From assembly GCA_050230475.1 (NCBI GenBank), contig JBFLGF010000003.1:1-64000 (forward strand): a stretch of DNA of 64,000 nt, written 5' to 3'. Both the position numbers and the translations under genes were made by a program. The notes below the pieces were generated by a model. It saw only the letters and a program-made list of their open reading frames with translations, did not search any database and was not told the DNA's origin. Below are positions 2 through 53,321 of the stretch, one piece after another. How positions within the stretch are numbered: the first letter of the stretch is position 1; each line of letters starts with the position of its first letter. This DNA comes from Ancylonema sp. (taxonomy: Eukaryota).

Positions 2-500
2 TGCTACACTTATGTGGATAAGGACCCGATCAGCCGCAACATTGCGCGCTCAGTCTTAACCACTCTTCAACAACAATACCCCACCCTACTACCTGATGTA
101 GCGATAAAAGCATTCGACAAGAGGCTACCCCAAGACATCTCTCAATGCTCGCCAACGTTTTTGGAGAGATTACTTGAATTCAATGGGCCAGTGGATCTGC
201 TAGGTGGCAGCTGGGGGTGTCAGAGCGTCAGCAGAGCAGGACGGCAACGCGGCGCAATGGATCCCCGCTTTCGGTTCTTCTATGACCTGGTCCGCATCAC
301 CAACTTCTTCCAGCAGAGGCAGTCAACCCCCCTTCTGTACCTGCTAGAAAACACATACCTTGGTGAGAGATGCACAGTTGCAGTGCAAAAGGCAAATGAC
401 CTGGTCCAATCGTTTCTTGGAGCGCCAGTACTCGTCGACGCTGCGGATCTGGGAGCAGCCGCGCATCGAGTGAGACTTTTCTGGACAAACATGCTCCAGC
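2..500 (+). mobile_element. DNMT3-like C5 cytosine methyltransferase fragment, probably from a Gypsy retroelement; runs off the window 5' and is truncated 3'
   Basis: Translation CYTYVDKDP...DLLGGSWGCQSVSRAG (motif IV)...YLLENT (motif VI)...AAAHRVRLFWTN (DNMT3-type motif VIII). Intronless and collinear with the DNMT at 40.6-42.3 kb that sits next to an integrase. Confidence 0.85.
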
Positions 501-23399: not shown

Positions 23400-23402
23400 T
23401 AA

Positions 23403-24394: not shown

Positions 24395-24397
24395 TAA

Positions 24398-24747: not shown

Positions 24748-24750
24748 TAA

Positions 24751-28806: not shown

Positions 28807-31800
28807 CTACATTGGCGTGGGTCTGCATGCCGCCACAAAGGATTTGAGCACCGGATCCTTGAACAAGTTGTCTAATCGCTCCTTGGTAAGAGGCCTGCAA
28901 AAAACGGGTGGCCTTGATCAGCTTCTGGAAGGGGGCAGTACACCAGCCAGCAAGGAATGTGTCCCATTTCCATCCCCCCACATTCCTCTCTCCTATCACA
29001 CACAGCCAACCCCTTCCCAACCACCTCCTCCCCATCCCTATTGCCCCCAACCTCCCCCCCCCCTCACCTCCTCGTGAGCTTCGCCCACCACTCCGACTTC
29101 TCCACCGCTCGCGTCAACAGAGGCCATCTTGGGAGGGACTCTACGCAGGCTGCGGAACCAAAATGGAATGGATTGGGAGGGAGAAAGAAGCGAGAGAAGG
29201 GAGGGATATCTTTAACACACCATCCTCGGACCCACACCTTAACCCATCTTAACAAACCCACATCCACCCCTCACTCCATCCCACTCTTCCCCAACCTCCC
29301 TGTCTCCCGTTCCTCCCTGTCTCGAACATCTTTTACCATCCCATCCACTCTTACTGTTAGAGGTAATCGCCCACAAGTAGTTCTCCTCCGCTTCCGTCCC
29401 AAAATCCCCGTGGCACCTGTGTCCCACCTCCAAAAACTTCACCACCACTTCGAAGGCCTTGGGCAGGCGCTTGTAGGACGCCAGATCCAATCTCTTCTTG
29501 ATCGCTTCTTCGCTTGTGAGGTCCAGCACCGACGCCACCAGGCAAGCCGCCATGGCTAGATTGGCCACGGCTGCCCTCCCCTTCACTCCTGCCACTGACG
29601 TCCATGCCACCATGGCTTGAAACACAGGGGTGAAGTCCCATGCCTCCAACACGTCTGGAAAGGCCTCTCTCTGCAACCAACAAGGGAGGCGGTGGGGAGG
29701 ATGCGAGGGACCGTTAAGTGTTGCCTCTGGATGGTCAACGGAACGAATCCGCTTTCAATGGCAGGCCGAGTATTGGGGCCAGTAGCAAAGCACCTGTTTG
29801 CCACTTCTTTCATTCCTACCCAAACACCCTCTCTCCCCCTCTCTTTCTCTCTCTTCTCTCTCCCTCTCTCCCTCTCTCCCTCTCTCCCTCTCTCCCTCTC
29901 TCCCTCTCTCCCTCTCTCCCTCTCTCCCTCTCTCCCTCTCTCCCCCTCTCTCTCCCTCTCTCCCTCTCTCTCTTTCTTACACATCCGAATGTGTTGAGCA
30001 TCACGTTGCAGGCATCCATGAGGTTCAGGTGCCCTTCCTCCCCAGCCTTCAGCGCCCCCATCACGCTCGTTCGTGACCGCTCCTGAATGAAGCGTATGAT
30101 CTGACAGCCACCCACGCACCACCCACGCTCACCTCTCCCCTCTCACCCTCTCTCCCTACACTCCACTCCCCGCAGGAGCGGAGGTTGGTAGACAAACCGA
30201 CTCTCCCATACTCATCCTTCTCCTCTCACCTGCTTGTGTCCCCCCTGTCTGACCAGAGCCTCGCACCCCTGAGCCGTGCTGCTCATCCTCAGGAGCGCCG
30301 GCAGAAGGAAGCACACGGCCTGGATGGGCATCTCTTCGTCCCGCGCCTTCACAGTGAGCATGAAGGTCAGGAGGCGACTCACTCGGCGGGGAGCAGCCTC
30401 CGGAACCTGCTCCAAGTAACGCCCCGCCGCCCGCACAGCCGCCAAGACTCAATTGTCCAACTTCTTGCCGTGCTCCTGGAAGCGAGAAAATGAAAAGGGT
30501 TATGTGCGTGAGTCGTGCGAGGGGGTGCGGCGGATCAGGAGAGCAGATGCAGAGAAGAGGAGGAAACACTTTTTTTTTTTTTTAACTTTTTTTTTTTGGT
30601 TTGAATATTTTGTAATGTTTTTTTTGCACTTGCACGCAGTCTTCTGTGGGTCACCTTAGCGTCAGTGATGAATTCGAATACGAGGCTCATGATGGCGCTG
30701 ACGGAATGGAGCACCTCCTCCACGCTCTCCTGCGGGAGTACAGAGAGCAGGCCTGCAGCAAACACACACCTCTGTGTCATCATCCTCTCTCTGCTCCACT
30801 TCAGCAACCTTCAGTCCCAGATTCGAGCCCCCCTCACTTTCAGAGTTGACCTTCTCTTCCTCGCCCTCTCCTTCCCCCTTCCAAGTCAGCGCCTCAATCA
30901 CTCGTTCAACCAACGCCAGAGCAGCCACCACCACCCCCCTCGCTTGCTCTGCCTCAGGAGACGAGTCTGCCACATCCCACTCCCCCCACTCCCCACCCCC
31001 CATCCCGCCTCCGCTGATTCCGAAGGCCTCCAGGTTGGCGTGGTTCAGCAGACTCTCCCCTCCTCCCACCCCTGCCTCTGCCCCATCCCCCCCAGCCTCG
31101 GCTGGGTCTTCCTTGTCCTGAAACGTGAGGTGGGCGAGCTTCTCGAACATCCCCGGGGCTTCGGACCGAAGGGTGTTCACCATGAGGAGGAAGAAGGTGC
31201 CAGGGACCCCTCCGCCATCACAATCTCCCACAATCCACTCCCTCCCTCCCGCCTCTGCTGCCACCTTCGCCAACTGCAGCGCCACCTGCTTGCCCTCCCC
31301 CTCCTCCCCATTTCGTTGCAGCATGTGTGCGATGCCGCAGCGGCAGTCGTGGGCCCAACCGCTGTCCGGAAAGAGTTCTAGGACCCTGTTCCGCACTGGT
31401 TCCTGCGCCCCCCCAATGCACAGTCGCCACCTGTCAGCGCTTGCACCACCCTTGCAGCGAAGTCAGAAGGGAGTGTCCATCCCAGCCCCCCTACCGCAGC
31501 CTCCTGTGGCGCCATGATGGTGACAATGAGGTTCGCAATCTCTGCCAGCGCCTCCTCACTTTGCCGACAAAGCTCTGACGCCAACACAGGTACCTGCCAC
31601 AGCACAGGCCCAGCCCCCTAAACCTCCACCCCCCCATCGCGCCCTCCCCTCATGAAGTCGGCACAGGTCCTCACCATTCCCGCCAGCGAGTGCTTGGCAG
31701 CGTACAGATCAGTGTCCACCACGCCCTTGCTGAAGAAGAAGGAGAGGAAGCGGAGGGCAGGACCGAAGCACTCATCCCCTGACCACCATTCCCCAGCGTG

Positions 31801-33502
31801 CCAGCTGTCACCTGTCAGCCCCATCCCAGCCCCCCCCCCCCCTGCCTGCACCTACTCCCCCCCTCACCTGGTGTGCAGGCCGCCAAGCAGTCGGCAACAG
31901 GTCCCAGGGGCTCCTCCTCCTTCAGTGCGGTCCATCCGCTGGGGGAGAGGCCTCCAATCATCTCCAGACACGTCAGCGCGTGGATCACGGGAACCGCTCT
32001 CGACCTGAACCCGCCCCCCCCCCAACCCCCCTCTGCTCACACCTGTTCTGACATCCAGGTGGCACTCGCCCACTTCTTCAGGACCTCCAGTTCCTTGCCT
32101 TCTTTCGAGTGCCAGCTGGCACTTGTCATGATGTCACGTCAGCCCACTACACCGTGCCAGCTGGCGCAGTGGCTCCCCACCCCCCTCGTGACCCCCACCC
32201 TGCTCCCTCTCTTCCTCAGGGAGTCTGGCGGTACCTTTGCTTCACAATGGCGAGGATGGGGGGCACCACATCCGCCCAATCGTATTCCTCTGCCAGGGGG
32301 GGGAGGTTTCGGTATCCCACCAGGACGCGCAGCACCAGCTCCTGCTCCCTCGTGCTGACACCTGGAAGCATGCGGGCGAGGGAGGATGTGTGAATGGAGG
32401 AGTGAGGCATAGAATCGGTGCAGTAGACATCCATCCGCCTTGCAGCAGATTAAGTCTGGACCTCAGAGCAAGGGAGGAGGGGAGTGGCAACCTCCACAGC
32501 CCAGCACTCCAAAACCACCTTCCTTCTCCTCTCCATGTTTGCCATTCTACCGTCTACCACCACAGCCAGGCATCCTTCTTCCCCAAGGACAAGCCCCGGT
32601 CAGCCCTGCATGCATTCTGGAGTCCTTACAGGTCTCCTGTGGGCTGAAATCCCAGGAAAATCTCTTATTTCTCTACCCCTTTTGGCCCTCTCTGCCTTTC
32701 CCATACCGACCATTCCTCGGCGATACTAATCGAACCTCCCAGAAGGTAATGGATAGGTGAGGGTACTGTGGGCGACCAGGGCGACTGAGCCCCCTCCCTT
32801 CCTACCTATTCACTCAGGCTCTCTCCCTCCCTTCCTCCTTCGAGAGTTTGTAGTTACCCTCTGCCCTGGACCACCTTTGTTGCTTACCCTCTGCCTGCAG
32901 GGTAAGGTTGATGAGGTGGAGCCCTATGATTTGGTACACAGCCTCCACCACCTGCGCCTCCCCTCCCTCCACTAGCTGTACTGCCACCTGCAGACCTGAC
33001 ACCTGGCGCTCCTCCTTCCAACTTCGCAGCATCTCTAGTTGTGACTCCAGAGCGCAGTCCTGCATCAGAATCCCCTCCCCCCCCCCCACCCTCAGCTGAA
33101 CTGGTCTATCGTATCCTGTCTATTGTGCCTGTATCAAGTATCACACCAATTTGTTCGCCAATTCCAACGCTAACTGCACGCGCCCCCAGCTACAGAGTGT
33201 CGAGGCCAATCAAGTCCACTTTCAGTTCAAATCGATTCAGGCACTAGGCATCACTGGACCCCTGCTTGTGATGAGGGCGCGCCGGTCATTGAATACTTAT
33301 GCAATGGTGTTTTCGACACTGCTTGTCCTCGTGTGTTCACTCGGAGACCTACTGTCGCTCGTGGTACTTCTTCACCATCCACTTCCATTGCCGTTCCCGT
33401 ATCTGTTTCAGAAACCAGTGCTGCCTCTGCGTCCCTCTCAATTTCCCGAGATTGGGAACGAGACTCTCTCGTTCGACTAACTTCTCCAGTCATTCCTCCC
33501 AT
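28807..33502 (-). CDS. Neurochondrin family ARM-repeat protein, multi-exon; start uncertain (33065 or 33502)
   Basis: LEMLRSWKEERQVSGLQVAVQL...VYQIIGLHLINLTL, FFLLMVNTLRSE, AVRAAGRYLEQVP...MLTVKARDEEMPIQAVCFLLPALL and VLDLTSEEA match my recollection of plant neurochondrin segments. Confidence 0.8.
29829..29977. repeat. CT-rich simple repeat in a neurochondrin intron
   Basis: Direct reading of (CTCTCTCC)-type units. Confidence 0.9.
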
Positions 33503-33979
33503 TGGCCGATTGTGAAATGAGTCAACCAGGGGAGGAACAGTAAAAGTGTCCAGCCCTCTCCTCTCGTCGCGTTCATGAGCAGGTACATGAGGGTCCGCAA
33601 GACTGCCGTTCTCAAAAGACGGTTGCTCTTCTTGTTTCTCCGAAGCTGTTAAACAATTTTCAGTCGGAGTGGGGAGCGCAGGTTGATGCCACGTTCCATC
33701 AGCTTGCACCTGGACTGGACGTGGAGAGGTTTCAAGAACAGGCTGGTGCAGGTCTGGAGGGGAGAGGTGCTGGGATTCTGGCGAAGCAGCGTCTGTCGTA
33801 GGTTAATCTGCTAGGTCGCACAACTTTTTGATAAAAAGTGACAGGTCACGAATTGCTCTTACACGCGTGAAAAAAGTTGGAAAAGTACAGATTTTAGACC
33901 CGGAAAGTCCGGAAGTAAAAAGTCGACTTTTTGCACCGAAAAAGTCGAAAAAGTTACTATTTTAAAAAGTATATATGCG

Positions 33980-34560
33980 AAAAACGACGGGAACCCCATC
34001 TCATTACACGAACGTGCTTGTATAGAAACTACATATCCTAAAAAACGACAAACATGTGAGCCGATTATACTAGACAAAACTAGCAACAACATCCAACTCT
34101 GCATAAGAAAGTGGAACGCGCGGTGGCGGGGTAGGTAACAAGGCCATGGATTTCTCTAGACGTAGGGTTCTAGCATGTATCGCATGTGCTAGCGACCGTT
34201 GCAATGCAATCGACACTCTCTAACGGAACCATGTGTACAACAAGCTAATGGAGGGCCCTCATCTTGCACACTCTCTAGATGCTAACGTTGCACACTCGAC
34301 CATAAATCTATGCGACCTATCAGACAACGCATCGTATGTCTCAAGAGCTAAGGGCACAAATTTCGTCCCAGCTGCGCGATCCCGATAGTGAAGGGACGAA
34401 AATGCTACACATTTGAGTTTATCTCGAGAGAAGTGGAATATTGTGCACCCACTTTGTAATATCTCCATCTACTCCCCCCCCTCTTCCGTTTAGCAAGCCA
34501 AGAATGTGTTCAAGTAGGGTGAAATCACCATCAAATCCAGCACAACAAAATACGAGTTTT
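33980..34560 (-). mobile_element. Non-LTR retrotransposon 3' fragment (CRE/R2-type restriction-like endonuclease C-terminus)
   Basis: HYRDRAAGTKFVPLALETYDALSDRSHRFMVECA...WFR*RVSIALQRSLAHAI. Diverged copies lie at 38590-39170 (-) and 36395-36480 (+). Confidence 0.7.
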
Positions 34561-35266
34561 TGCCATCGCTAGGAGCCACCAAAGCGATTGACTATAAGAG
34601 TGAGAAGTTTGAGGACGTGCTCTCGGACTACGACTTTGTTCTTGATAGCACAGGTGAGAGGTTCGGCTTAGCAACTCCTAATATTCAATCGCATTTTAAA
34701 CGTTACTCGTGCAAATGCTTCTTAGAATGCGTGTGGTTTGCTTGTGTGCACGTCTTTCTAAATTTTTGTTTTGATAAGTGCAAAATAAAAATTTCTTACC
34801 AGTACGCCAGATTTTCAAGTCTTGTAGCAAACGGTGAAGTTTCGTCATAGGTGTCAATTCCTCCATTTCCTCACGTTCGACTTTGGGTAGCGCTTTTAAA
34901 AAGAGTAAGGTTTTTTTTGTCGTAGGTAGAAGACTACACGATAGCGAGGGGTTGTTATGCGATTGTATATGCTTGTTTTGATGTTGATCCCTTGAGCATG
35001 TTTTTTGCAACGGTAACCGCAAAGAAACTCAAAGTGATAAAAAAAACGAGAAAGTAGTGACTATCATCGATTTCGGCGCTAAGTCTCCCATCGAATCATT
35101 CGCATTGTCTATCTCTTCGGATTTGTTAGAGAGAGTGAATCCATTTCTTGGAAATGGTCATGTAAAAGTCATGATGGATAAGTCGTCCCCTTGGAAGTTC
35201 TTAGAAGGGATTAAAGCTTATGATCTCTTGGAAAGCAAGGCGGTAACATCATATCACCATCAATGA
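34535..35266 (+). pseudogene. Fragment of an NADPH-dependent alkenal/quinone oxidoreductase (AOR-like, MDR family)
   Basis: SLGATKAIDYKSEKFEDVLSDYDFVLDSTG followed by a GT donor, then SSDLLERVNPFLGNGHVKVMMDKSSPWKF...AYDLLES. Only the C-terminal part is present and it is degenerate. Confidence 0.7.
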
Positions 35267-35951
35267 AGTACAAGACAAGCACAAACTTCTTTAAGGACAT
35301 GCACGTGCTGAGAGAAGGTTGGTGTTGTGCTATCTAGCATCGTCTACACACACACGTGTAAATCACCGTTGCAATGAATACGAAAGTGTAATTGCACTAA
35401 CGAACACATCACACGTGTCTCCCACACAGGTAAACACATCGAAAACCACACCCGCCCCGTACGTGCGAACCCGCGCGTGTGGTACGATGCATTACACACA
35501 TGCATACCCATGCCATGTGTGCAACTACAATCACACGCACTCTCACACCTACATCATGCACCATCAAATGCAGGTTGACAACTCAAACATATCTACACCA
35601 TCATGAGTAAAATCATTCTGAATCCCCCCCAAAAGTCTTAGTAAGCTCCCGAGTCTTTGGCTTTGTAAACTCCACTCGCCATGCGTCACGCACCATGCGG
35701 CGGTCTATGTAGAAGGAGTTTGCGCAATAACCTCACTAAGAGGGGCCTCTCCACCCAAACCAACATGTATACAAATGAGTATATATCCACCTTCCAGTAG
35801 TTCGTAATGAAATAAGGAGGGTACCGCCCCTTATTCCATCGTCGCCTAGGAGATCAGATTACCACCACCATAATCCAACCACCGCCAAGGTTTAAGGTAA
35901 GGTTCAGCCTCACGGTTTGACATCGTGTGGCATCACAACAGTAGCTCACAN

Positions 35952-36190
35952 ATGCAGGCGCAGCGAGCGCAAATGATCCCAAAAATGCAATGGGGGCTGG
36001 GACCGTGGTACAGAGCAAGCCCAACCCCCCATGAGCAATCGGAAGGCGAGCCTTGGACTCTGGCTGACGAAGCTCCTCCTCGGACAAAACGGGAACCCCC
36101 CCCAAGATACCCACAAGAAGCGTCTGCCACAGGACACTATCATAGTCCCCCAAACACTCTAGAAACGCCGGAGTTGGGGGGCACGACCGA
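35952..36190 (-). mobile_element. Non-LTR (CRE-like) RT C-terminal fragment
   Basis: KARLPIAHGGLGL matches the LPxxxGGLG motif found after the RT domain; it ends at the N at 35951. Confidence 0.6.
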
Positions 36191-36511
36191 AGAAGGTAAG
36201 CAGGTCGTTGAGCGAAAACCTGCGTGAGGTTAACTAATTAATTAATAATAATAATTAATTAATTAACGGTTCAGATGGACGATGAGATACGAGATGAGTG
36301 CGTCATGAGCATGTCGAGGCACACGACTACAAAGCTTGAGTCATGATGAACGTCTCGATGCAATCTCGACTAGATACGGGAAGTAAGACTCTGACCCCAC
36401 CACCGCGCGTTCCACTTTCTTCTGCGCAGTTGCATATTGTTGCTAGTTTTGTCTAGTACGATCGGCTCACATAGTTGTCGTCGTCGTCGTCGTCGTCGTA
36501 TCGTTGTCGAT

Positions 36512-38485
36512 AAAGTAAATCCTCATTACAGGCGCAATCTTGGGACAATGAAAACGTGTGCCTGTAACGTGGTTTTGTCTGTAACGCGTTAAACGCACAA
36601 TGGCACATTTGCCAGGGGCCCTGAGGCAGATGTGCCCGTAACGAGGGAATCTCAATTTTTTGCTCTCGGAGGTGGTCCTTCGTCTGCCAAGTCTCTGAAA
36701 AAAATCACCAATAAATTTTGTCTTATTTGCTAATTGGAGCGTGAATACTTATGGTATGGTGCTTATGGTACTTACTAATGGTATCATATGCACTTGCATG
36801 TAGTTTGTGAGATGCGATGGTTGTCCAAGGTAATGATCGTTCACTCCGTCCATCCATTTGAAGGCATATAAGGCACATCTAAAGGAACGTAAAGGATTCA
36901 CATGATGGGATGGTATTGTCTTATCCTTATTGTCGACGAGTATAGATTCGGGCATGCGAGCCGTTGACTTTAACAAAGCCAAAAATTATTGTCTTATTTT
37001 CTGATTGGAGTGTGAATACTTACAATAAATGGTTTCATATTCACTCACATGGATTTTGAGAGATGCGATGGTTCTGCAAGGTAATGGTCGTTTACTTCGT
37101 CCATCCACTTCATATGAGGCACATCTAAAGGAACGTAAAGGATTGTCATGATGGTTTTGTCTCATCTTTTTTGTCGACAAATATAGATTCGGGTATGCGA
37201 GCCGTTGACTTTGACAAAGCCAATAACTATTGTCATATTTGCTGATTGGAGTGTGGATACTTACAATAAATGGTTTCATATTCACTTGCATATAGTTTGT
37301 GAGATGCGATGGCTGTCCAAGGTAATGGTTGTTAACTTCGTCCATCCATTTCAAGGCATATGAGGCTCATATAATGGAACATGAATATTTGTCGTGATTG
37401 GATGGTCTTGTTTTTGCTTTTTGTAAACAAGTATGGATTCATGCATGCATGCCATTATCTTTAACACAGCCAATAAATTGAATATGTACACAAAAGAGTA
37501 GCCATATATTTTTTCTGCCAACATTGCACGTTAAGTACTCCTGCTGTGCTTAACATCCACTTAAATACCCACTACCGGGAAAAAATATTGATTACCTCTT
37601 GCTTGCGGTTCATAACACATGTTGCTTGCATTGCCAATAACTTGTTCGCCAATTGTTGGACTTGTAACATATCTTCATCCCCAAGACAAGCATCTTGGGC
37701 GATAAAGTTTGCAATGCCTTTGCAATGACTCCCTAAATTCCACAAGAGTCATCTCGGAAGACCCCATGTCGACACCATCATCATCACTCTCGATGAGTTC
37801 AACATTCATATCCGCACATCCCATGTGTTGCACATGGTCCACAATCTCAAACACTTACCCGTTGGAACCACATGAACAGACCGTCTTTGAGCTTAGGCCT
37901 CATCCTCGTTCTTTCACCTTTTTCTTCGGAGAGGGAAGTCCATTTCTCGCCCTCCTTCAAAATCTCGCTAATAAGTGCTCTCCCGATCGCTTTGTCGAAC
38001 TCCTTGCTAGCAATTTGACTTCTCTTTTCTTGTGTCCATTGTGGATTGTGGATTTGTACCTCACAGATTCTCTCCTTCTCTGTGTGAGTTAATATCACCC
38101 AATACTATTAAAAATTCAAGGTACAGGTGCAGACCCAAACATTTCATATACGAACGCGCTACGAGCATGAACGACTATTTTCGATAAAGATTCCCTCGTC
38201 TTGGAAGGGAAGCTACCCCACGTTTCAATGTGGAGAAGATGCTATACGCCGGAAAAGGACTAAAATCTTCGTCTGAAACAATAATGTCCCCCCAATAGCT
38301 TGTAACGTCAGTATAGTATATGACGTCATAATTCGTTATAGGCACAAAACGGCTTTTTGATGTGTCTGTAACGTGATGTGCCTATAACGAAGACGTTTTG
38401 GCGGGGAAAAGTTAGTACACGCGATTTTGGTGCCTGTGACGTGATTGTGCTTATAACGGGTGTGCCTATAACGAGCGTTAACAGT
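36512..38485 (-). mobile_element. Internally deleted pogo/Tigger-like DNA transposon
   Basis: CENP-B/HTH-like peptide EKERICEVQIHNPQWTQ...IGRALISEILKEGEKW...LKDGLFMWF (38098-37860). Terminal regions 36512-36655 and 38330-38485 carry related GTGCCT(A/G)TAACG motifs in inverted arrangement. Confidence 0.7.
36708..37480. repeat. Three-unit tandem repeat (about 240-270 bp) inside the pogo remnant
   Basis: Units start at about 36708, 36979 and 37220 with CCAA(T/A)AA...TTGTC(T/A)TATTT...ATTGGAG...AATACTT. Confidence 0.85.
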
Positions 38486-38589
38486 GTCTAGTTTTTGTAG
38501 AAGCACGTTCTTGTAATGATGTGGAGTTCCCACCGTTTTGAAATAATGTACAATTCGCAGTTTTTTTCTTTGCAGAGAATTGTTTGTTA

Positions 38590-39170
38590 TTGCAAAACGG
38601 CGGGAACCCCATCTCATTGCAAGAACGTGCTCGTATAGAAACAACACATCCTTAAAAACGACAAATATGTGAGCCGATCGTACTAGCCAAAATTAGTCAC
38701 AATATGCAACTCCGCATAAGAAAGTGGAACGCGCGGTGGTGGGTGAGGTAACAAGGCCATGGATTGCTCTAGACGTAGGGTTCTAGCATATATCGCATGT
38801 GGTAGCGACCGTTGAAATGCAATCGATGCTCTCAGACGGAACCATGTGCACAACAAGATAATGATGGGCCTTCATCTTGCACACTCTCTAGATGCTAACG
38901 TTGCACACTCGACCAAAAATATGTCTAACCTATTAGACATTGCAACGTATGTCTCAAGAGCGAGGGGCACAAATTTCAATCCAGCTCCGCGATCCAGATA
39001 GCGCAGGGACGAATATGCTACACATTTGAGTTTATCTCGAGAGAAGTGCAATAGTGTGCACTCACTTCGTATGGCCTCCATCTACTCCCCCCCCCCCTTC
39101 CGTTTTACCAAGAATGCGTTATAGGCGGGTGAAATCACCATCACAACCAGCACACCAAAATACGGGTTTA
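38590..39170 (-). mobile_element. Second CRE-type non-LTR 3' fragment
   Basis: Collinear with 33980-34560 (LKFVPLALETYVAMSNRLDIFLVECATLASRECAR). Confidence 0.7.
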
Positions 39171-39299
39171 TTGTTTCGCGATAGGATAAGAGCGCTTCGT
39201 AGATNAAAACGAGTTAAGTGCCGATAGCGACATAACTGTTTTTCTCTCTAAACGAGTTAAATGTTGATGGCGACATAACTATTTAGGGCTTTACCTGAA

Positions 39300-42200
39300 T
39301 GCTTGTTTTCCAGCACCAGCCGTTTTCAAGCACCCTCTCCAACCACGGCTCTAGGCACCAAAGGTGGTACCCCTTATTTCACGTGTCGCACAACACCGTG
39401 TAGGGGGGCCCACTCCGACTCCCACCGATACGAAAGTGCATAGGAGCCCCCCAGTAGATCCTCTCCGCCTACAGGTTGTGGTTGAGGATGGGCATCGGGT
39501 TATGAGCGATGTTTTTCAACTACTCCTCTATGCGCGCCGCATTACTCCCCTCCAGCACTGCCACCCCGGAGTCCTTGAACTCCACTACTCGTAGAATGTG
39601 TGGCCTCGTTGGGAATTCCAAAGTGTGTTGCGCCTTCCGCTTTAGCAGCACGCAGTCTCGAGGCTTGAATGACGCCTTGGGGCGGTCCTGGCCACCCCCG
39701 CGCACCAGCTTGTGTCTCCCCTTGTCGCATTGTTGGGCAATCGCGAGGTTGCACATCGCTAGCGACATCACCTCTCGGAACGCCTTCCCCCTCCGATCCA
39801 AGAAAACATGCAGGTGCATGGTTGCTGCAGCTAGGTCCAAATTCTCCTCCTCTAGGTGTTGAATGCGGGACTGGAAAATGGGGTCTCACCCAAACATGAG
39901 AAAGTAGGGTGAATGACCTACCGCCTTTTGCTTGCTCATCGGGTAGCCCATGGTGACGTAGGGAAGCAGCTCATCCCAATCTCCCCCCCTCCCATCTAGG
40001 AGAAACTTTCTCAGCGCCCTCTTCATGGCTTGCACCATCTTCTCTGCCAGCCCGTCAGATTGGGGCTGCTCCCTTGACACTAGCGCCTGCGTAATCGTAT
40101 GTTGCGCTAGGAGATGCTAGAATTCCCCTATGAAATCCCGCCCTTGTTCCGCGAGGACCTCTCCAGGATCCCCATAACGACTAAGGACCCCCTCTAAGAA
40201 GCCTCGCGCCGTGTCCCTGGAAGACTCCGACGGGAGCGGGATGAGCTCCACCCACTCGGTGACGTGCTCGATGCAGAACATGACCCACTCGTTGCCAACT
40301 GCGGTTTTTCGCAACGGTCCAGCGAAGTTCACTCCCCATCGGTACCCAAGCCCCTTGATGGGCAAGGGCTGCAGCTCCTTCCTCGACTTGTGGAAGCCAG
40401 CCTTCACGCGTGCGCATGAGAGGCAAGCCACCGCCACCACTGTGTCGCCCATCCCGCGCCACTATTAGTTCTACCGTAGGCGATCTAGCACCCGCTAGAC
40501 GCCAAAATGACCCATCCCCCGATGACTATCTAGAGCGATCTGCTCTCTCATAGCTGGCCCGGGCATCATCACCATAACGCCCCGCCGCAGCAAGTTGAAC
40601 AAGTCGCTCCCCATCCGCCAGTAGAAGCGCGCCCGCCATCAAATTGCTCTCTGATTTGACGTGACGCCTGGCGTCGCCGTCTCCCCCGCCTCAAACCCCA
40701 TGAGTCGCTCCTTCTCCACCACCTCTGGCTACTCCCACACGCCCTCCCTCGTGTGGTAAACCATCCCCTCCTCCGGTGCCCCGTTATCCTTAAATGTGAA
40801 GGTATTACTGCCGAGGTAGGAGACAATGGTAGGCATGCACCTCCTTTCCCCCCCTAACTGGTTTAGAGGGGAAAAGGGGCGGCGGTCTGAGTGATTAGGT
40901 TTTGTGGGTATGTGATAAGGGTGAAGAACATGGTTTAGAGGGGATGAAGGTGGAAGGGAAGTGGGAAGGGCAGCTTCTCCTTCTGGAAATTCGTCTAGAA
41001 AAGGCGGACTCGATGTGCTGCCCCGCCTAATCCCGCCGAGTCCGCTATGACCGGCGCACCAGTGAAGCTCTCCACCAAGCTTGTAGCCTTACGCACCGCA
41101 TCAGATTTCTGGTCCCCTAGCCAGGTGTTTTCAAACAGGTAGAGGAGTGGTGAAGTCTGTTACGCTAGAAATAGTTGCATATCCGCACCAAGTCGTAGAA
41201 GAACTGGAAACGGGGGTCTGCGAGACCTTGCTATTGTGGACGCCATGTTGACGTACACTCTTGACTCTTCTCTTAACTCACTCAGAACTCAAATAGCGCT
41301 CAGTGACTATTAACACATACACATACTCAGTGGCGCATTCACATACACTTTAAACTCATACACATTGTGCGCGACACATAGACAAAACTTTTTTCATGAA
41401 AAGCAAGTGAAAACAAATACCGGAGAAGAATTGTCACTAATTGTCACTATAGTGGTTCGGTCGATCCGCTAGCCAAAAGTATGACCTTGGAACACGCTAC
41501 CGAGTCCAAAGCACATCTAAACGACTTACGACCCTGGATACATCGAACGTTGAATCTAAACCCGGTCATACACAATCTTCATAAATACGCACGCGCGCGC
41601 CACGTTAGGCTACGCCGTCGCCACGTTGTCACTGACACATATTCAACGATACAAACTAAACGAACCATTACGAACTAAAATACACGCGTCACAAGCACCA
41701 AACACATTTCATAGGCGCACACTCACACACTACTCATTTTATAGACGCACTCTTACACACAAAAGCAAGAACGTCACCGATCACACCAAGAGTTCCCGTC
41801 AAACTAAATTGGCAACTTTGGCCACCTAAAAGTTTAACACTAATTTATTCAGTTTATTTTAATTATTTAATTTAATATAGAGGTTATGTTGCAGCATATA
41901 TATCTCACGGCTATCTCCCAGCTTTGCTCACGCCCCCCTCCATCAGGTCCGAGGGACCGTGCCACACAACGAGGTATCCTAGAAAAAGGGGGATCACCAA
42001 GGAAACATCATGTGGCAGCCGCTTGTCAAACGTCTTTATGACTGCGTTTGAAAGTTGATCAAGGTATTCTGCTTGTAGACGCTGCAGCTTCGTTTTCGCC
42101 ATCCTCCTCGACATGGGATCACGGTCACAATATGTGTAGATGCACACCTTGTAATCGGCAGCCAGCGCCGTTTGCAGCACGTCGCGTGTCACCCCGGCGA

Positions 42201-42350
42201 ACGTCTTCATCTCACGGAGGTCGTTGCGTAGGGAAGTAGGAGAGAAGTGGCGTATAGAAGCGTTGATGGGTGTCGCCCCCTCCACCTCATCTCCCAGCCA
42301 AGAGGATGAGGGGCTCAACGTGGCTTTCAAGGTGCATTGCCCTTGATCCA
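39300..42350 (-). mobile_element. Decayed Gypsy-type pol remnant: DNMT3-like methyltransferase, integrase, PHD finger
   Basis: In order on the minus strand: KTFAGV (motif I)...YTYCDRDP...GGVSKAGR [solo LTR] QGLADPRFQFFYDLVR...LFENTW...AAHRVRLF*TN...EKERLMGF (motif IX), then integrase H...GHFG...CLSC...WGVNFAGP...CIEHVTEWVE...QSDGLAEK, then VLCDT*NKGYHLWCL (PHD). Contains stops and frameshifts. Confidence 0.88.
41235..41909. mobile_element. Solo LTR (675 bp) inserted in the DNMT domain
   Basis: Begins TGTGGA and ends TCTCACG (one change from the canonical CA). Flanked by the perfect 5-bp TSD GCTAT (41230-41234 and 41910-41914); removing it rejoins the DNMT sequence. Confidence 0.8.
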
Positions 42351-43189
42351 CTTTCCCGCGATTTAGGGTAAATATGTCGTGCCATCTGGCATCATTCACA
42401 CTCTCACGTGCCATTCTATTGTTATAACGACCATCATCGTTAATTACACTCCACATGTGCGAAATGCTACTTAACGTCATTAGTGTCCGCACACACGCGT
42501 TACAAAATCTGGTCGAGATCCGCATTATCCTTATGCGAGATAACAAATGGCTATTGTCCATACTATACTAGTCTATGAAGCACACCAAATATAATTTTCT
42601 CCCCCCCCAAAAGATGAGGCGAGCTCTTGGCACACTCAGCTTTGCATTCGGTGCAATATGTGACGTGTGGAAAGCACCAAGGGGCTTGCTTGTAAATTTT
42701 TTTGAGGGGTTGGGCCTCTAAACCAATCGATACAACCACATCATAAGTTTTCCAACTCAAAACATGTAAACTTAAATAGATATGCACTCTGAAAAATACA
42801 CGTCTTAAATTAAGAGTATGTTCCCCCCCCAATTTTCTCACAACGGGTCAAACATTCTCTTCTCAGTATTCGTAAGGATCAGTGTTTGGGCCATGCAAAT
42901 CACCAAGATGTTGCCCTTCCCATGCAAAGAAGTTGATGATCAAATGTTATTTGCACCTCATGGCAATCGTGTATACGACTCCATGGTTTGTAGATCCCCC
43001 CCCAAACACAGGTGGCCTTCCATGGTTATGAATTATTTATCAATTATGTACCATTATATTACATCATGAAAGTGTAATCTATATCACAAAGCGTTGGACC
43101 GCGTAGGCTTACTCCATGCTTAGTCATGCCGTCAAGGCTCAAATTTGATATCCCTATGTACAGTGATAAGATGGGAATGAAATATACCT

Positions 43190-44640
43190 GAATGTGAAGG
43201 ACCCATCCGGGACCCTCAGCAAAGGCTTATCCAAACACCATGAATGGTAGCCTTGATTGCATGCGTCGCGGAGCACCATTTTGCTTTGTCTCCGCCGGAT
43301 ACCACACACTCGGCAATGAACCGATGGACACCGATAAAATCGCTCCGGATAAGTATTGTGATCCACGATGGGAAGAGGTCAATGTGCAATTTTCTTATGA
43401 TGTTCTTCGATGCGCGGAGCGACACTCCCCTCCAACACCGCCACATCAATTGGCCGGATCTCCACCACCCGTAGGACATGAGGCTTGGCTGGAGCGTTTA
43501 GTCTGCACTCTGTGTGCTGCTTGAGGAGCACATAGTCTCCAGTTAGAAGTGAAGCCTTGGGACGATCCCAGCCACCCCCAAGCACTACCTTGTAGCTCTC
43601 TTTGTCCCGCTACTGTGCTATAGCCAAATTTATCATGGCCAATGGCATCACCCGCTTGAATGCTTGGCCCCGCTCCTCCAAAAAGACTTGCAGCCGCTCC
43701 TCTGTGACGTCCTCGTCCACCTCCACATCATGCAGCCTATGTTTGGGATCTCGCCCAAACATAAGGAAATGGGGGCTGCAACCCACCGATTTTGCTTTGA
43801 CATCTGGTACCCCATGGTACCATATGAAAGCAACTCATCCCAGTCCTCTCCCCCACCGTCCAATAGGCACTTGTGCATCAACCGCTTCATTGTTTGTACC
43901 ATGCGCTCCGCCAAGCCATCCGGCTCAGGATGCTCCCGAGATGCCAGCCTCTAGGTTATTTCATGTTTTTGGAGAAGGGTTTGGAACTCTCCAATAAATT
44001 CTCGCCCTTGGTTTGTCAGAACCTCCCCCGGCGCCTCGCAGCGGATCAGCACCCCCTCAAGTAGACCCCATGCGGAGTTTTTAGAAAATTTGGAGGGTAG
44101 AGGGATTAACTCCACCCACTTAGTGAAGTGTTCAATACACACTATGACCCAAGAGTTGCCAGCTGAAGTTTTCTCTAAAGGCCCCCCAAAATCTACCCCC
44201 CACTTGTAGCCCGCCCCCCGCTCGGGTAGTGGGTGCAATTCCTTGCCAGAGTCCCGGAAGCCTGCTTTCACCGGCGCGCATGGTAGGCATGATTTCACAA
44301 CTTCCACTACGGCATCCCCCATGCCTCTCCACCAACAGTTCTTTTGAAGTCTGTCCAAGACGCGATGAACTCCGAAATGCCCCATCTCTCGATGTGTCTC
44401 TAAGGCTATCTTAGCCCGCTTTGCTAGCTTGGGCACCACCACTAGCGCTCCTTGCTGCAGTATCTTGAACACACTGTCTCCTATCCATCGGTAGCTCTTA
44501 GCACGCTTGTAGATGCGGTCCCGCATCTTGGCACGAAGACCGTTGCCATACTTGTGTGTGTGAAGAAATCGAAGCACCTCGATGTCGTCCTAGATGTCTT
44601 TCTCTTCCTCCCCATCTTGTACAAGAGTGGAGAGGCCCAC
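43190..44640 (-). mobile_element. Gypsy integrase plus PHD finger remnant (copy B)
   Basis: ETHREMGHFG...CLPC (HHCC), WGVDFGGP, CIEHFTKWVE, GLAERM, followed by CRVC...MVLRDACNQGYHSWCLDKPLLRVPDG (C4HC3 PHD, one Cys changed to Arg). Confidence 0.9.
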
Positions 44641-44699
44641 CATCAGTGCCAGATAAGTTGCTGGCGCCATACCCTCCCCCTTATGTTGCTACTATAGGG

Positions 44700-45470
44700 A
44701 GCATTGGTGGTGGTGCCTTGGCCGGCGGAGCGAGCTGATATTGCTTTAGAAACACATTGGGGAATGGGCCATTTCGGAGTTCAACGTGTTTTAGATCGCC
44801 TTCAAAAGAATTGTTGGTGGCGAGGCATGGGGGATGCCGTGGTAGAAGTGGTGAGGGCATGCCAGCCCTGCGCTAGGGTGAAGGCAGGCTTTTGGGAGTC
44901 CGGAAAGGAGTTGCAACCGCTACCCCTACGGGGGCTGGGCTGCAGTGGGGGGTGGACTTTGCTAAGCCTCTAGATAAAACTTTTGATGGCAACTCTTGGG
45001 TCATGGTGTGTATCAAACATTTTACTAAGTGGGTAGAGTTGATACCACTTCCCTCCAAGTCGTCGAAGGACTCCGCACATGGTCTTCTGGAGGGGGTTAT
45101 CAAACATGAAATCACTCATCTGCTGGCGTCACTGGAGCACCCCCAGTCCGGCGGTCTAGCGGAACACATGGTCCATGAAGCGGACGCTGTGCAAGTGCCT
45201 CTTTGATGGTGGAGGATAGAATTGGGATGAGCTATTGCCTTTCGTGGCAATGGGCTACAAGATGTCTAAACAAAAATCGGTAGGCTATAGCCCCTTTTAC
45301 CTCATGATTGAAAGAGATACCATTTTCCAGAGTAGGCTGCAACACTCGCAAGCAGAGGAGCTAGACCTGGCCGCCACGACAGAACAACTACCTGTCTTCT
45401 TAGATGCCCGGGGTTAGGCATTCTAGCGAGTGATGCCTCTAGCCATGTGGAATTTAGCCAATATCGATGG
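44700..45470 (+). mobile_element. Gypsy integrase remnant (copy C), head-to-head with copy B
   Basis: ETHWGMGHFGVQRVLDRL...CQPC...WGVDFAKP...HFTKWVELIPLP, with frameshifts and an internal deletion. Confidence 0.88.
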
Positions 45471-45937
45471 ACTCCCATCTTGTAAGATGACGAATTGAAG
45501 AGAGTTTGCATTTTGTCAACCGAAGCCTCTTTTACTATTATTGATTCCATCATGTATATAAAAAAAATGCGTCATGTGCACTTTGAGCTAAATCACAAAC
45601 TGAAGAACAAGGATGGCTCACTCCCAACGCTACTCACTTGCTCTGCTCCTTGCAGAGAGACTAACCAACATGTCATTTCCTGTTCCTATTAAAACATAAG
45701 GATGCCTTATCGACCCCAAATCGACTACACTTGATAAATACAATTGTCAGCCCAACTAAACCGAATGGTTACCATCTCCCAATACGTCCTTCTCAAACAC
45801 TGGGGATGAAAGGCCCTTGAGGCGTGGTTAGACGACCCGCTAACACTTGCTGACACTAAATTGGGAATCTAGGTTGCTGGTGAGCCGGCCTCGCCACCGA
45901 AGCAGGGACCTCCTTGGTGCAAATAATGATGTGGCTC

Positions 45938-48144
45938 TCATTTTGGTAGTGCGAGGCTGAGGAAAACACTCAAGCCAAACCAGGCAAGGAAAAAGTAGCC
46001 GACTCTTTTGATGCCCTCCGGATCATCGGGGAATACCTACAAGGAAACAACAAAGAAGAAAATGTACACAAACCCTTCACTCCAGTTAGTTTCGCATTCT
46101 TCGTGCTGAAGCTATCATCCCCCTAGATTCCGTCACAACCAGTATCGAACGTTCACATCAGCCGGAGGTCAATGAAGAAAGTGCATAGAGAGAGTACAAG
46201 AATGGAAGGCACGCGGCCTGAAATCATAAACAAATGGATGGCTGTTCTCAATATTTTGGCTCCCTCTTACGCCCTGTCCCATCTTTCTTTTCCAGATGAG
46301 GCACCAAGTACATCACAAGGCATTCTGCCCTCTTCGAACATGGCAATGAAATTATGATGGCAGAAATACATGAATATGGCAGAAATGCATGAATATGGCA
46401 GAAATGCATGAATATGGCAGAAATGCATGAACATGCAAACCACTTACTGGACGTGGCTGCTCCCCCTGTCGCTGCGGGATCTCCTCCATGTCTGCTTGGT
46501 ATGGCCACACGTACTTTCCATCTGGCTGCTCCTGACGCATAAGACTCCATTGGTACATTCTCCTCTCCGGCTCCTGCATTAAGACGTCAAATGATACCTG
46601 CCCAAGATAGCACAAGGAGAGGATGTATTCTTTTTCAACAAACAACGGCATGGAACCATGGGCGAAGGACAGGCGCAGACGGAGCTTGGAAGTACTCCAG
46701 TGAGTCGCCCATCATTTCTTTTATTATATGGTAGATCAGCTTATATTAAAAACATCTGATGCGCACTCCTTTATCTGGAAGGCAAACCTTCCATTCCCAG
46801 TAGAGACCTACCAATGAACTGAAGTTTTGCCGCATGTGCCAGATGAAGGGACTGTGTCATGTACAAGGGGTGCACATATGTGCCCTATATGCACATGAAT
46901 GTGTGACTGTGAAGGGACGTGTCATAGATCCATGGTTCCCAGTCACTTTCGCTAAACTATCGTTCTCACCTCCAGTTCTTGCAGCTTCTGCTCTGCTGCT
47001 GCATCCCCTGCCTCCTTCTCAGCAAGCAGCTCCTTCCGCTTTGCGAAATATGCAGAAGCTACCTGCATGTTCCCCAAAGAGGCGGCAGTCAGCATAAAGA
47101 ATCGCTTAGTTTGGCCATGTTACTCTATAAAGTATTCTGGAATCTTCCATCGATACTTTCTGTTGCTTTCTTATATGGTCTTCTCGAGCAGGATATATTT
47201 ACTGCAACTACTACTACTGCTACTACTACTACTACTACTACTACTACTAAAGTGAGATTTATCAAAAGGATCCCCACCCGCAGAAGAAAGATTCACTGGG
47301 GCATGTTGTCAGTGCATGAACTTCGCCGGACATCTTAACCAAGTCTAACCTCAGCAGATGTAGAAGCGCGAGAAACTCCTAGCCGCCCGAAGTGATCGAC
47401 AAGAACTATGTCTGCGCAGATAAGACAAAGAATATTCGTCGGGTATGACAACCCCAGTATTCTACCGACTCATGATCATTTAACAACATCTGCTAAACCT
47501 GCAGCGAAAAGAATATGCAAGAATTGCTAACACAAATGTCTGGGGGTAAGAAGAATTTGCGTTTCATTCGAGGGTTGTGTGTTGCTTTGCACGTGAAGAT
47601 AGGGCGCATTAACAATGTTCTGAGGATAAGCTTTCCTCCTCGATATAGCAAGTTGCTGGAAAAAGGAAGGGACAGCGGTTTTCCAGGGCCACTGACAACC
47701 GCTGTGAATGCCCTTGGGAGCCTGGTACCCGAAAATCAGATACCAAGACAAGTCCCATCGTTCTATCGCACAGCTAAAATCGAAGGTAAGTCACACGGGT
47801 GCATAAGACCCAGCGACGTTGCCAACATCAATACGTGACTAGGGTGCATCGGAATATCAGTATACCGTCTCGTGAATAAACAGAGACAAAAATCCTTGGC
47901 TCGGTCAACTCTTATCTTTTATCAGACTTCCCTCACCTGCTCTTTCAGAGCTTGGCGCAGATCCTGTGGCTACTTCAGCTCGGACTGGACTCCGGCGCGG
48001 TGAAGAGATACATGACGGGCGGCATACTCCGGTAGCGGGCCATGCGATTTGACTGCCAGTTAGGAAAGGCTTCGAAGAAGATCCGGCTGGAGAAAGCAAT
48101 GCGGTCGTCTTTCCAACAGCTGACATTGGCAATGAATAGGCCAT
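45938..48144 (-). CDS. ndhU: Chloroplast NDH complex subunit U (CRRL, J-like protein)
   Basis: Exons 48144-47937, 47411-47350, 47062-46970, 46597-46448 and 46036-45938 splice in phase: transit peptide, DHFGRLGVSR, SFDVL...ERRMYQWSL...YVWPYQAD, and a C-terminal TM segment VGYFFLAWFGLSVFLSL. The true exon 1 may be the copy at 50843-51050. Confidence 0.88.
46357..46435. repeat. Four copies of a 19-bp minisatellite (ATGGCAGAAATGCATGAAT) in an ndhU intron
   Basis: Direct reading. Confidence 0.9.
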
Positions 48145-48787
48145 CACATGCAGCAATCCGCAGAGTTTGTGTCCTCAATGCTGAAGGAATTTGAGGAGAT
48201 TGCGGGTCGCGTAGAGCCGTAGAGAGTTAATGAGAGAGATGTGGGAGGAAAAGCCTAGGCTCCTGGTATGACAGTTGGCGAGCACCCCTGGATAGAATCG
48301 GGTTCCGTTTAGACTCCACTGCCTGAATGAGTCCGCCGTGGCGTAGAGGAATAATTTCGCTACAGTACTGCGACAGCGTGTATTGCGCCGTTATTGTTAC
48401 GCCATCGAAGTTGCCGCCTAGCCGCGCCAACAAGTGACACCTTCAGCTGACACAGCGGCACCGGCGCTTGATGGAAAGTCAGGCATGTAATCTACTTTTG
48501 TACTCACATGTGCATGCAGATCAAGTATATTATGTATATTATATTATGCATGCAACGGACGACGATAAAATGCAAGGTCTTGATGAGTAAGAGGACGTGG
48601 CTTCGTAATTTTTCCAAAACGCACAAAGACTCGCGATTGTGTCACCCACTGTATTTAGAAATGGCTTCGTTTGAAGTTCTGGCAATGTCGCCATCAAGAA
48701 TCCTCTGAAAGGGTCCGCGGCTAGCTTGAAATCGAAAGTATATATCACATTGCATCTTCCCTAACGTACAGTACGGGTTCGGTGGTG

Positions 48788-50407
48788 ATGGTGATGCCAA
48801 CTTGTCCGGGTCTGACACTTCGACATTCCGAGCTCGTGATGTTTCAACATCGCATATATGCTTCACCTGGTTTTTCCCACCCACAACATAGAGGTAGAAG
48901 AGGTGCGAACTCAGCTTTCGGTGCCGGCAATTGTATTCTTCTTGTTGAACACATGCATGTTCTGTACGTATACTGCACTTGATGTGGGCGGACAATATCC
49001 GTTTGTGGCATGGCATCTGGCCTGCAAAAATTCTGCACGTTCTGGATAGCCCGTGGGATTATTGAATCTTATCTCTTACGGAGCTGCTTGCGATATGAGG
49101 ATACCAAATAATACGGTACAGTCTGTAGTAGTATTCTGTGTTATCAGCCCAGCTGTTTCTGTCGGTGTCCATGATGAAATGTAAAAATCTCCTTCGATGT
49201 CTTAGACTATTTTCCGGTAGCCTTACTGTGTCCTTGTACATTGTTGTGCTTCTAAATAGTGGTCCTTATAAAGGATACAGGGGGCTGCAAACCGTACCAT
49301 TTGTGAATGCTTTCGAGAGTAAGACACCATATTCATGTCTTCGTGACTTCCATGTACTCTCCGACTCTCCCTGCAGATCGGAAGTTCTGGAAGGGCAACA
49401 AAGCCAAGCCTGTTGCTATTGCTTCTCAGGGGTCTCGTGATGATTTACAAGGAAGGACTGTGGTGGCAAGTGCCTACTATACATATAGCTGTATCTGTCT
49501 TAGGCCTTGCTGTCCTAGTATGATGCATGTACTTTTGGATGCATCATTCAGATTTATGCGTCCTGTCCAGCCATCCAGTGTATTTACATTTTTTCTGAAA
49601 CTCGTCACTAGCCAACTAATAATATCCTCCCCTGCTGGGTGGCAGATCATTGGCTTAGGCAGATCTGGCAGAGCAGCAGCACATTTAGCCCTTGTCCGTG
49701 GAGCTGCCAGTGTGATAGGTCTCGACAAAAATCCTCATGTTCTTCGATTGGAGGTGAGATGGATTCCTTTATGTGTAAAAAAATACCACACCGCTGGAAT
49801 CGTGATGAAAGGTATCACGGGTCCAGCAGGACAATCGGTGGTCGCAGCAAGTGGACCAGGCGAGTTGAAGTGTTATGTGTGGTGGCGCCTTTGAGACCAC
49901 TCACAAGGCATGTAATCGTAGCCTCTCCTTTGTGACACACAGGAAGATGCCACGTTTTCCGGATTCGCAAGAGACAGAGTGCGCACACAGACTGGTGCAC
50001 ATCAGGCGGCAACGCTTGAACAAGCATGTATTATGGTCCTCTCTCCAGGTGTTCCTCTATCTCAGCCTCAGATCGCAGAGGCCCTCAGGCAGGTACCAGG
50101 CTTGCAATTCATCACCACCATGTTTCTTGCCTCCATGCGAGCCAGTGTCAGTTGGTTCAACGACACTTGTTTAACCCCTGAGGTTTATAAGCCAGTGTCG
50201 AGTTGCGAGAGTTGGCATTCCCGTGAATAAGATCAAAATAGAAGCCAAACACACAACTCTGAAGCCCACTCATCTGCTTTCCGTATCCAGGGTATCCCTG
50301 CTGTATCCGAGCTGGCCTTTGCAGCAGAGTGCTTGCCACAAGATCTACCTATCGCTGCAGTGTCCGGAACGAATGGGAAGTCTACTGTGACTACCTTTAC
50401 GGGGCAG
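48788..50407 (+). pseudogene. murD: murD 5' half, unit 1 (possibly an assembly duplicate of unit 3)
   Basis: Same exons as the start of the full gene; ends at the microsatellite and the N. Confidence 0.7.
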
Positions 50408-50842
50408 GTTTGAATCGCTTTCCGTTTTGCTTCAAAATAATTATAGGACCCTGTACCACAACTTCTGATAGTCTGATAGTCTGGTAGTCTGATAGTCTGA
50501 TAGTCTGATAGTCTGNAGAAGATAGGGCATATCAAAAATGTTCCGAGGATAAGCTTTCATGCCACCTCGTCATAGCAAGTTGCTGGAAAAAGGAGGGACA
50601 GCGGTTTTCCAGGGCCGTTGTGAATGCCCTTGGGAGTCGAAAATCAGATAGCAAGACAAGTCCTATCGTTCTATCGCACAGCTAAAATCGAAGGTAAGTC
50701 ACACGAGTGCATAAGACCCAGCGAAGCGGCCAAAACCAATACATGACTAGGGTGCATTGGAATAACAGTATACCGTCTCGTGAATAAACAGAGACAAACG
50801 ATCTTTGACTCGGTTGACTCTCTTTTATCAGACTTCCCTCAC

Positions 50843-51050
50843 CTGCTCTTTCAGAGCTTGGCGCAGATCCTGTGGCTACTTCAGCTCGGACCGGACTCCG
50901 GCGCGGTGAAGAGGTACATGACGGGCGGCATACTCCGGCAGCGGGCCATGCGATTAGACTGCCAGTTTGGAAAGGCTTCGAAGAAGATACGGCTGGAGAA
51001 AGCAATGCGGTCGTCTTTCCAACAGCTGACATTGACAATGAAGAGGCCAT
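50843..51050 (-). other. ndhU: ndhU exon 1, diverged copy in unit 2
   Basis: Open 208-nt exon MASSLSMSAVGKTT...SERA with an intact GT donor. Confidence 0.8.
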
Positions 51051-53207: not shown

Positions 53208-53321
53208 GTTCGAATCGCTTTCCGTTTTGCTGCAAAATAATTTTAGGACCCTGAACCATAACTCCTCATAGTCTCATAGTCTCATAGTCTCATAGTCTCA
53301 TAGTCTCATAGTCTCATTAAC

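Follow-up and report, generated by a model that had tools for sequence, protein, structure and literature searches.

Remains of a dead Ty3/Gypsy element of the Gypsy-DNMT3 kind, whose methyltransferase was likely joined to an integrase-PHD tail by an internal deletion

The analyzed stretch of Ancylonema sp. DNA (64,000 nucleotides; hereafter, the window) carries, between positions 39310 and 42318, remnants of a DNMT3-like methyltransferase, an integrase and a PHD finger, which follow one another in this order on the minus strand, as determined from profile matches and alignments of relatives (Table 1). Methyltransferase-, integrase- and PHD-like text is also visible on the minus strand in a six-frame translation of positions 39100-45400. 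A retro-DNMT profile, built from 15 intact retro-DNMT domains, matches four collinear minus-strand pieces (42207-41989, 41236-41150, 41165-40977 and 40959-40645). Joined with X at the breaks, these pieces score 222 bits, compared to a best score of 6.7 bits in 200 shuffles. They support the reading of an earlier note on this DNA, which had recognized motifs I, VI, VIII and IX and a partly deleted motif IV: a motif I-like FAG is located at ~42201, ENT (motif VI) at ~41132, HRVR (motif VIII) at ~41015 and motif IX at ~40716-40693, and five codons of motif IV, including that of the catalytic Cys, are missing at 41932/41931. Motif X is absent. The same note had attributed the absence of the C-terminal half from the list of open reading frames to stops and a frameshift; the stops are there, and the frameshifts are two rather than one (near 41162 and near 40980, the latter accompanied by a short deletion). 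In a Pfam scan of three of the DNMT pieces by themselves, there were only chance matches and none to PF00145. The DNMT assignment of this copy is therefore made through its relatives and through a second DNMT fragment at positions 2-490, which PF00145 does recognize (E = 6.7e-08).

Table 1. Remnants of the element, its insert and further family copies in the window
Feature	Position	Strand	Remarks
Second DNMT fragment of the same family	2..499	+	PF00145 E 6.7e-08; 74% to P0302; retro-DNMT profile
Decayed PHD finger	39310..39438	-	PF00628 E 0.28, below cut-off; aligns to relatives over its length
Gypsy integrase	39440..40638	-	intact HHCC; N,E,E in place of D,D,E; interrupted by nine stops; matches 8 clade C proteins at 65-69%
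In-frame break point between DNMT and integrase N-terminus	40636..40644	-	compared with P0012, lacks ~680 codons (motif X, RT, RNase H)
DNMT C-terminal part to motif IX, without motif X	40639..40977	-	51% to P0302 aa 726-837; profile
DNMT middle, motifs VI (ENT) and VIII (HRVR)	40980..41229	-	two stops; frameshift near 41162; profile
Target-site duplication GCTAT, copy 2	41230..41234		
675-bp high-copy insert, TG...CG ends on + strand	41235..41909		flanked by 5-bp duplication
Target-site duplication GCTAT, copy 1	41910..41914		
Pre-DNMT linker and DNMT3-like N-half	41915..42318	-	47% to P0302 aa 499-636; 38% to P0012 aa 1050-1178; profile
Second decayed copy: RNase H-integrase linker, integrase, PHD	43196..44685	-	no DNMT before integrase
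Third, inverted integrase fragment of the same Gypsy-DNMT3 family	44716..45459	+	

The integrase is of the Ty3/Gypsy DDE type with an HHCC zinc finger. The zinc-finger profile (Integrase_H2C2, PF17921) scores above its Pfam cut-off in the window copy (E = 1.7e-07), and the core profile (rve, PF00665) remains under its cut-off (E = 0.0055) and aligns to intact relatives over its length; both are above cut-off in close relatives. The HHCC/DDE integrase of the earlier note is hence right in its zinc finger and not in its catalytic triad, which reads N,E,E. Only three of the eight zinc ligands of the PHD finger are left, and the PHD fingers of its relatives exceed the Pfam cut-off of PF00628. The finger had been described as C4HC3, which does not fit this lineage: its form is C4-H-C2-H, with His as the last ligand in all 14 clade A and C relatives (the clades are defined below), and the last ligand is Cys in all eight clade B and D proteins. 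Among the profiles that had been proposed as a check, Integrase_H2C2 exceeds its cut-off in this copy, rve and PHD match below theirs, and PF00145 does not match the DNMT pieces. The integrase-PHD frame contains 11 stops, at least five of which fit single C-to-T or G-to-A changes, an anecdotal count.

No RT or RNase H was found anywhere in the window by tblastn, in agreement with what the earlier note had seen. There is no repeat pair in the window that bounds the copy, which is truncated at both ends. Because the motif IV Cys and motif X are gone, the DNMT is frameshifted twice, the integrase-PHD frame is interrupted by stops, the triad is altered and most PHD ligands are lost, the copy is dead in all three domains; kept catalytic residues, a mark of the Gypsy-DNMT3 kind, are not found in it. 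The CpG observed/expected ratio of the element (0.64-0.88) is not below that of the window (0.77) or of a host exon (0.55), and composition therefore gives no sign of self-methylation.

The segment 41235-41914, which had been suspected of interrupting the DNMT, indeed does so, and consists of the 675-bp insert and one GCTAT copy. In run X1, the summed contig depth of the insert is 27,934-45,169, compared to 17 in the next DNMT bin, or about a thousand-fold that of the adjacent DNMT (depth is not copy number). Given the GCTAT duplication and the high depth, we infer that a common element inserted here at a later time. The insert likely represents a solo LTR left by an unrelated element. It has no terminal inverted repeat, and there is no Rfam match in positions 36000-46000, insert included. 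The insert also has an excess of CpG (observed/expected 1.44). As for the other family copies in the window, the DNMT fragment at 2..499 retains motif IV (as WGCQ), is cut by the window start and ends after motif VIII.

To place these remnants, we compared them with related proteins. With the DNMT-end/integrase region as a query, 43 matches were found among longer proteins: eight in clade C, one in clade A, eight in clade B, two in clade D and 24 of distant Gypsy type. Clade C comprises eight close RT-RH-INT-PHD clusters (966-1091 aa), none of which has a protease or DNMT. The clade A match, P0012, is a full Gag-PR-DNMT-RT-RH-INT-PHD protein. Clade B has its DNMT before the integrase (RT-RH-DNMT-INT-PHD), and clade D consists of two further RT-RH-INT-PHD proteins. 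The DNMT of P0012, used as a query, retrieved seven proteins: six have the full order PR-DNMT-RT-RH-INT-PHD, and one, PR-DNMT-RT, is truncated. The copy at 2-490 retrieved 681 proteins from the full library; the best 150 of them are 101 DNMT-only fragments, 39 proteins of clade B type, eight PR-DNMT and two DNMT-RT, and its nearest matches are short fragments at 60-80% identity. A query with the N-half of the window DNMT found none among 436 candidates (cluster representatives of 570-1817 aa). This is not evidence of absence, because P0295 and P0302, whose lengths are in that range, are cluster members and not representatives. No family loci were detected in viral contigs (four scans), prokaryote genomes or metagenomes, and a locus search gave two PHD-only matches at 26% and no family locus. 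The only named relative, P0208 (GJP34393.1), comes from a zygnematophyte, Closterium sp. NIES-68; it has a zinc knuckle, protease and DNMT, ends 68 residues after the DNMT and belongs to a different subclade.

Catalytic motifs IV, VI, VIII and X are kept in all 15 intact relatives aligned, and motif I is kept in 14 of them. Motif IV reads WEC, not the usual PC, in 67 of the best 150 matches, and WPC in 21. The best solved-structure matches of the P0012 DNMT domain are to DNMT3B (E = 1.2e-06), and those of the 2-490 copy are to HaeIII, followed by DNMT3A/B. We conclude that the element carries an unpermuted, intronless C5-methyltransferase domain that is probably related to DNMT3, as judged by similarity and not by a tree with cellular DNMTs. 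The place of the DNMT differs among related Gypsy polyproteins. It follows the protease and precedes RT in clade A and in 10 of the best 150 matches, and it lies between RNase H and integrase in 39 of these 150.

The trees place the window copies consistently. In the integrase tree (50 rows, made up of 48 of the 49 proteins tried and two window copies), both window integrases fall within clade C (SH-aLRT 97), which is sister to clade A (96) and apart from clade B. In the RT-RH tree, clades A and C group together (100), again apart from clade B. Both are quick trees with SH-aLRT support only and with distant Gypsy proteins as outgroup. In a DNMT tree of 22 rows, P0302, clade A and the window copy form one group (100/100), and clade B lies outside it; the branch that unites the window DNMT with P0302 has a support of 88/81 only, and this tree has no cellular DNMT3 as outgroup. 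The first DNMT trees contained three groups only and show distance, not sisterhood.

The nearest DNMT relatives of the window copy suggest how the intact family is organized. P0302 (860 aa), which has the DNMT closest to that of the window, and P0295 (676 aa) consist of a protease followed by a DNMT, and both end 21 residues after motif X. They are at least 49% identical to the window read-through and 74% identical to the 2-490 copy. In their cluster (21 members), 14 of the 15 listed proteins end 21 residues after motif X, and the remaining one is a fragment that stops earlier. On the RT side, 14 of 16 listed proteins of 900-1100 aa begin 148-177 residues ahead of one shared RT motif (the others at 129 and 54), and the start of the non-shortened clade C proteins is the linker that follows the DNMT in clade A. 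The spacing also agrees: 21 residues, a stop and 45 residues amount to 67, versus 59-68 in single-frame clade A. We propose that the intact family is probably laid out as Gag-protease-DNMT, a stop, and then RT-RNaseH-integrase-PHD. The second frame would open at the stop of the first, as deduced from proteins of different records; the link between P0302 and the proteins of clade C consists of trees and spacing only, not of a common contig. The DNMT shares an open reading frame with RT and RNase H in six of the seven clade A proteins; the nearest relatives appear to be organized otherwise, and the window copy has no RT.

We next consider the joint between the DNMT and the integrase. There, the DNMT and integrase text share one or two residues, the frame is kept and nothing is filled in. 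The alignment of P0012 to the window is collinear and has a single jump, from aa 1390 to aa 2069; what the window copy is missing is therefore motif X, RT and RNase H. Ahead of the window DNMT lies sequence that matches the linker on the protease side in P0302 and P0012. Motif X and the integrase His are separated by 127-291 residues in clade B and by 692-753 in clade A. The corresponding distance in the window, where motif X is absent, is ~45 residues. Because this is shorter than in either clade, the joint represents a loss under either model. The earlier note had the DNMT running directly into the integrase, which cannot be maintained: with motif X absent, the joint is a break point and not a natural linker. 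Judging from these alignments, the direct fusion is most likely the product of an internal deletion of ~2 kb and not a design of the family. We are therefore rather confident that the window holds a dead Ty3/Gypsy remnant of the Gypsy-DNMT3 kind, in which an internal deletion of the DNMT end, RT and RNase H likely joined the DNMT to an integrase-PHD tail.

The two parts could also stem from separate copies or subfamilies and have been brought together, through recombination or a template switch, at a short sequence common to both. Such a chimera would suit a region that is a pile of fragments, where 7 kb contain three pieces of integrase and several repeats, and the DNMT is less similar to its best relative (49%) than the integrase is to its best relatives (65-69%). 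However, the DNMT domain is more diverged than the integrase among intact relatives too, the two halves are on the same strand, in the same order and in frame with nothing filled in at the joint, and both belong to the A+C lineage in separate trees. We consider a chimera unlikely. Far less probable still is that RT-RH-DNMT-INT-PHD, with the DNMT directly before the integrase, is the native order of the family, and that only a short stretch was lost. This order, which the earlier note had expected of intact copies, does exist in the wider superfamily, where 39 of the best 150 matches have the DNMT after RNase H or directly before the integrase. These proteins are of the distant clade B, however, and have 27-29% identity to the DNMT read-through, where clade A reaches 38-40% and P0302 49%, and the order in the nearest intact relatives is Gag-PR-DNMT-RT-RH-INT-PHD. 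In addition, RNase H is joined directly to the integrase in all eight clade C clusters and in the window's second integrase copy, and the linker ahead of the window DNMT is of the protease-side type. A native DNMT-integrase order is already contradicted by the linker and the trees.

That the joint was made by an assembler across repeats is just as improbable. The region is rich in repeats, and none of the listed contigs extends 31 bases beyond the joint in both directions; the single listed contig that crosses the break point has ~14-17 bases on its short side, under the 31-base bar. Yet this 299-base contig, from another study (run X6), spans positions 40626-40924 over the joint with one difference and no gap, and most of the region is covered by near-identical contigs from runs X1, X3 and X6. 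With internal deletion as the preferred explanation, the window copy is an ordinary dead fragment, and the fusion that makes it conspicuous is most likely the scar left by a deletion. What remains of the earlier proposal that one family combines a methylation writer, an integrase and a PHD finger is that the three do belong to one element, with the motifs present in 15 of 15 relatives; the direct DNMT-integrase line is not supported as its architecture.

The window element is of the Gypsy-DNMT3 kind, as far as this is described in the text of PMC5890265. Compared by description, it shares with KnitGypsy-Dnmt3 of Klebsormidium nitens the Ty3/Gypsy type, an intronless, unpermuted DNMT3-like domain and a host of streptophyte type, the last presumably so for the window element. 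In the account given there, the DNMT of KnitGypsy-Dnmt3 is in the Pol open reading frame with RT and RNase H, whereas the nearest relatives of the window copy suggest a place at the end of an upstream Gag-protease frame. The terminal repeats of the K. nitens element are described in the same text as having a DIRS-like arrangement. A PHD finger is not mentioned in the text and three supplements of PMC5890265; its Fig. 4c and main supplementary PDF may show a PHD and the domain order. A preprint (bioRxiv 10.64898/2026.05.21.726589) also names "Gypsy-DNMT3" of streptophytes. In the literature searched, which most subscription papers fall outside, we found no description of a DNMT and a PHD in one Gypsy element and none of the two-frame Gag-PR-DNMT / RT-RH-INT-PHD layout.

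PHD fingers are described as widespread in retrotransposons in the portions consulted of PMC6673714, PMC9940879, PMC2774666, PMC10952607, PMC13519894 and bioRxiv 10.1101/2021.11.30.470311. Gypsy-7a_cRei and REM1 of Chlamydomonas are likewise Gypsy elements whose polyprotein has an accessory PHD, which is proposed to guide insertion (PMC9940879; PMC6673714, as excerpted). The consulted part of PMC9940879 lists no DNMT for Gypsy-7a_cRei; the window family has one, and its clade A and C fingers end in His. SymbioDIRS-Dnmt3 is likewise a retroelement with a DNMT3, found in two domain orders within Pol, but it is a dinoflagellate DIRS element with a tyrosine recombinase and without the DDE integrase of the window family (text of PMC5890265). 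EpiLTRs, as outlined in the preprint, are likewise LTR elements with a cytosine methyltransferase and a chromatin reader; in them, a DNMT4-sister enzyme is combined with DAM and a chromodomain, whereas the window family has no adenine methyltransferase. Neither DAM nor a chromodomain was found in clade A or C relatives, which sets them apart from EpiLTRs.

The distant clade B has a further domain. Polyproteins P0013, P0014 and P0015, together with 14 of the best 150 matches, end in a second methyltransferase-like domain. This tail matches the phage DNA methyltransferase family phrog_799 in three of three members (best E = 3.7e-06) and phage class I or N6-methylase-like Atlas clusters at 0.95-0.96. 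Its fold model has a pLDDT of 66 and resembles class I methyltransferases only at a TM of ~0.4, and a profile search against solved structures gave nothing under E = 0.2. Among the relatives, only clade B has this second, phage-like methyltransferase. Clade B may be seen as a DNMT3 and PHD counterpart of EpiLTRs, with a predicted second methyltransferase.

How would a live element of this family use its domains? We suggest, at even chances, that the DNMT would be made with Gag, packaged in the particle and used to methylate CG sites of the new cDNA before integration. This scheme follows, by analogy, the model set out in the text of PMC5890265, whose discussion still regards the role of retrotransposon DNMTs as open and whose peer-review file argues for action on the element's own cDNA from the DNMT sharing a polyprotein with RT. 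According to the same text, SymbioDIRS enzymes methylated CG de novo when placed in yeast; with that of Klebsormidium no methylation was obtained there, a result that the authors called inconclusive.

The PHD finger, with slightly better than even probability, would stay on the integrase, tether it to H3 tails that probably lack K4 methylation and steer insertion away from active promoters. By sequence, the clade C finger is closest to the CHD4, KMT2C, WSTF, ATXR5, KDM5 PHD1, PHF21A and UHRF1 fingers with solved structures, several of which read H3 with unmethylated K4. PHD fingers that read K4me3 carry a Trp in their cage, and the relatives have Gly at that position. The earlier note had likened this arrangement to the ADD domain of cellular DNMT3. 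The comparison is weak: in single-frame relatives, ~1,000 residues separate the DNMT from the PHD, and in the nearest ones the two probably lie in separate frames. A coupling of reader and writer like that of DNMT3-ADD is unlikely, because the two domains flank RT and are probably on different proteins. The window copy does none of the proposed steps.

We put forward a fuller reading tentatively, at somewhat less than even chances. The DNMT would end the Gag-protease frame, and the RT-RNaseH-integrase-PHD frame would start at the stop, so that the DNMT would be made at capsid-level amounts and fill the particle. Within the superfamily, the DNMT would have shifted from one of two sites in Pol to the other, and a phage-like amino-methyltransferase would have been gained in one branch. 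The resulting combination of DNMT3, PHD and a second methyltransferase has no counterpart in the papers searched. The new elements here are the candidate two-frame layout, the two Pol positions of the DNMT and the predicted second, phage-like methyltransferase in a distant clade. A DNMT probably on the Gag side of a frame break, versus one in the single frame of a sister clade, versus one after RNase H in a distant clade, is a natural experiment, which asks whether the enzyme has to be tied to RT or whether packaging alone is enough. Intact proteins such as P0302 and P0012 offer testable enzymes.

The genes that flank the element are intron-split eukaryotic genes. The stretch also occurs in glacier and ice metagenomes of three further studies, and none of the datasets listed as containing it is of RNA. 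Host genes at 5809-7138 and 25650-27114 comprise intron-split cytochrome P450 exons and a JmjC-domain gene. At 47346-56487 are three tandem units of ~3 kb, of which the first and third are 99.7% identical and the middle one is ~86-90%, with an N at 50516; they are possibly an assembly or haplotype artefact. One exon in these units has no Pfam match and is, we presume by eye, MurD-like. A long 8-bp tandem array with strong GC skew occupies 8850-9870, and a similar array with an 8-bp period is located near 56390-56690. A short repeat family with perfect or near-perfect palindromes, including one of 60 bp at 24151-24210, lies at 23400-24750, and a 241-bp tandem repeat in 2.3 copies lies at 36777-37353. 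Two copies (87%) of another repeat of very high depth, at 33981-34562 and 38594-39173, adjoin the 3′ end of the element.
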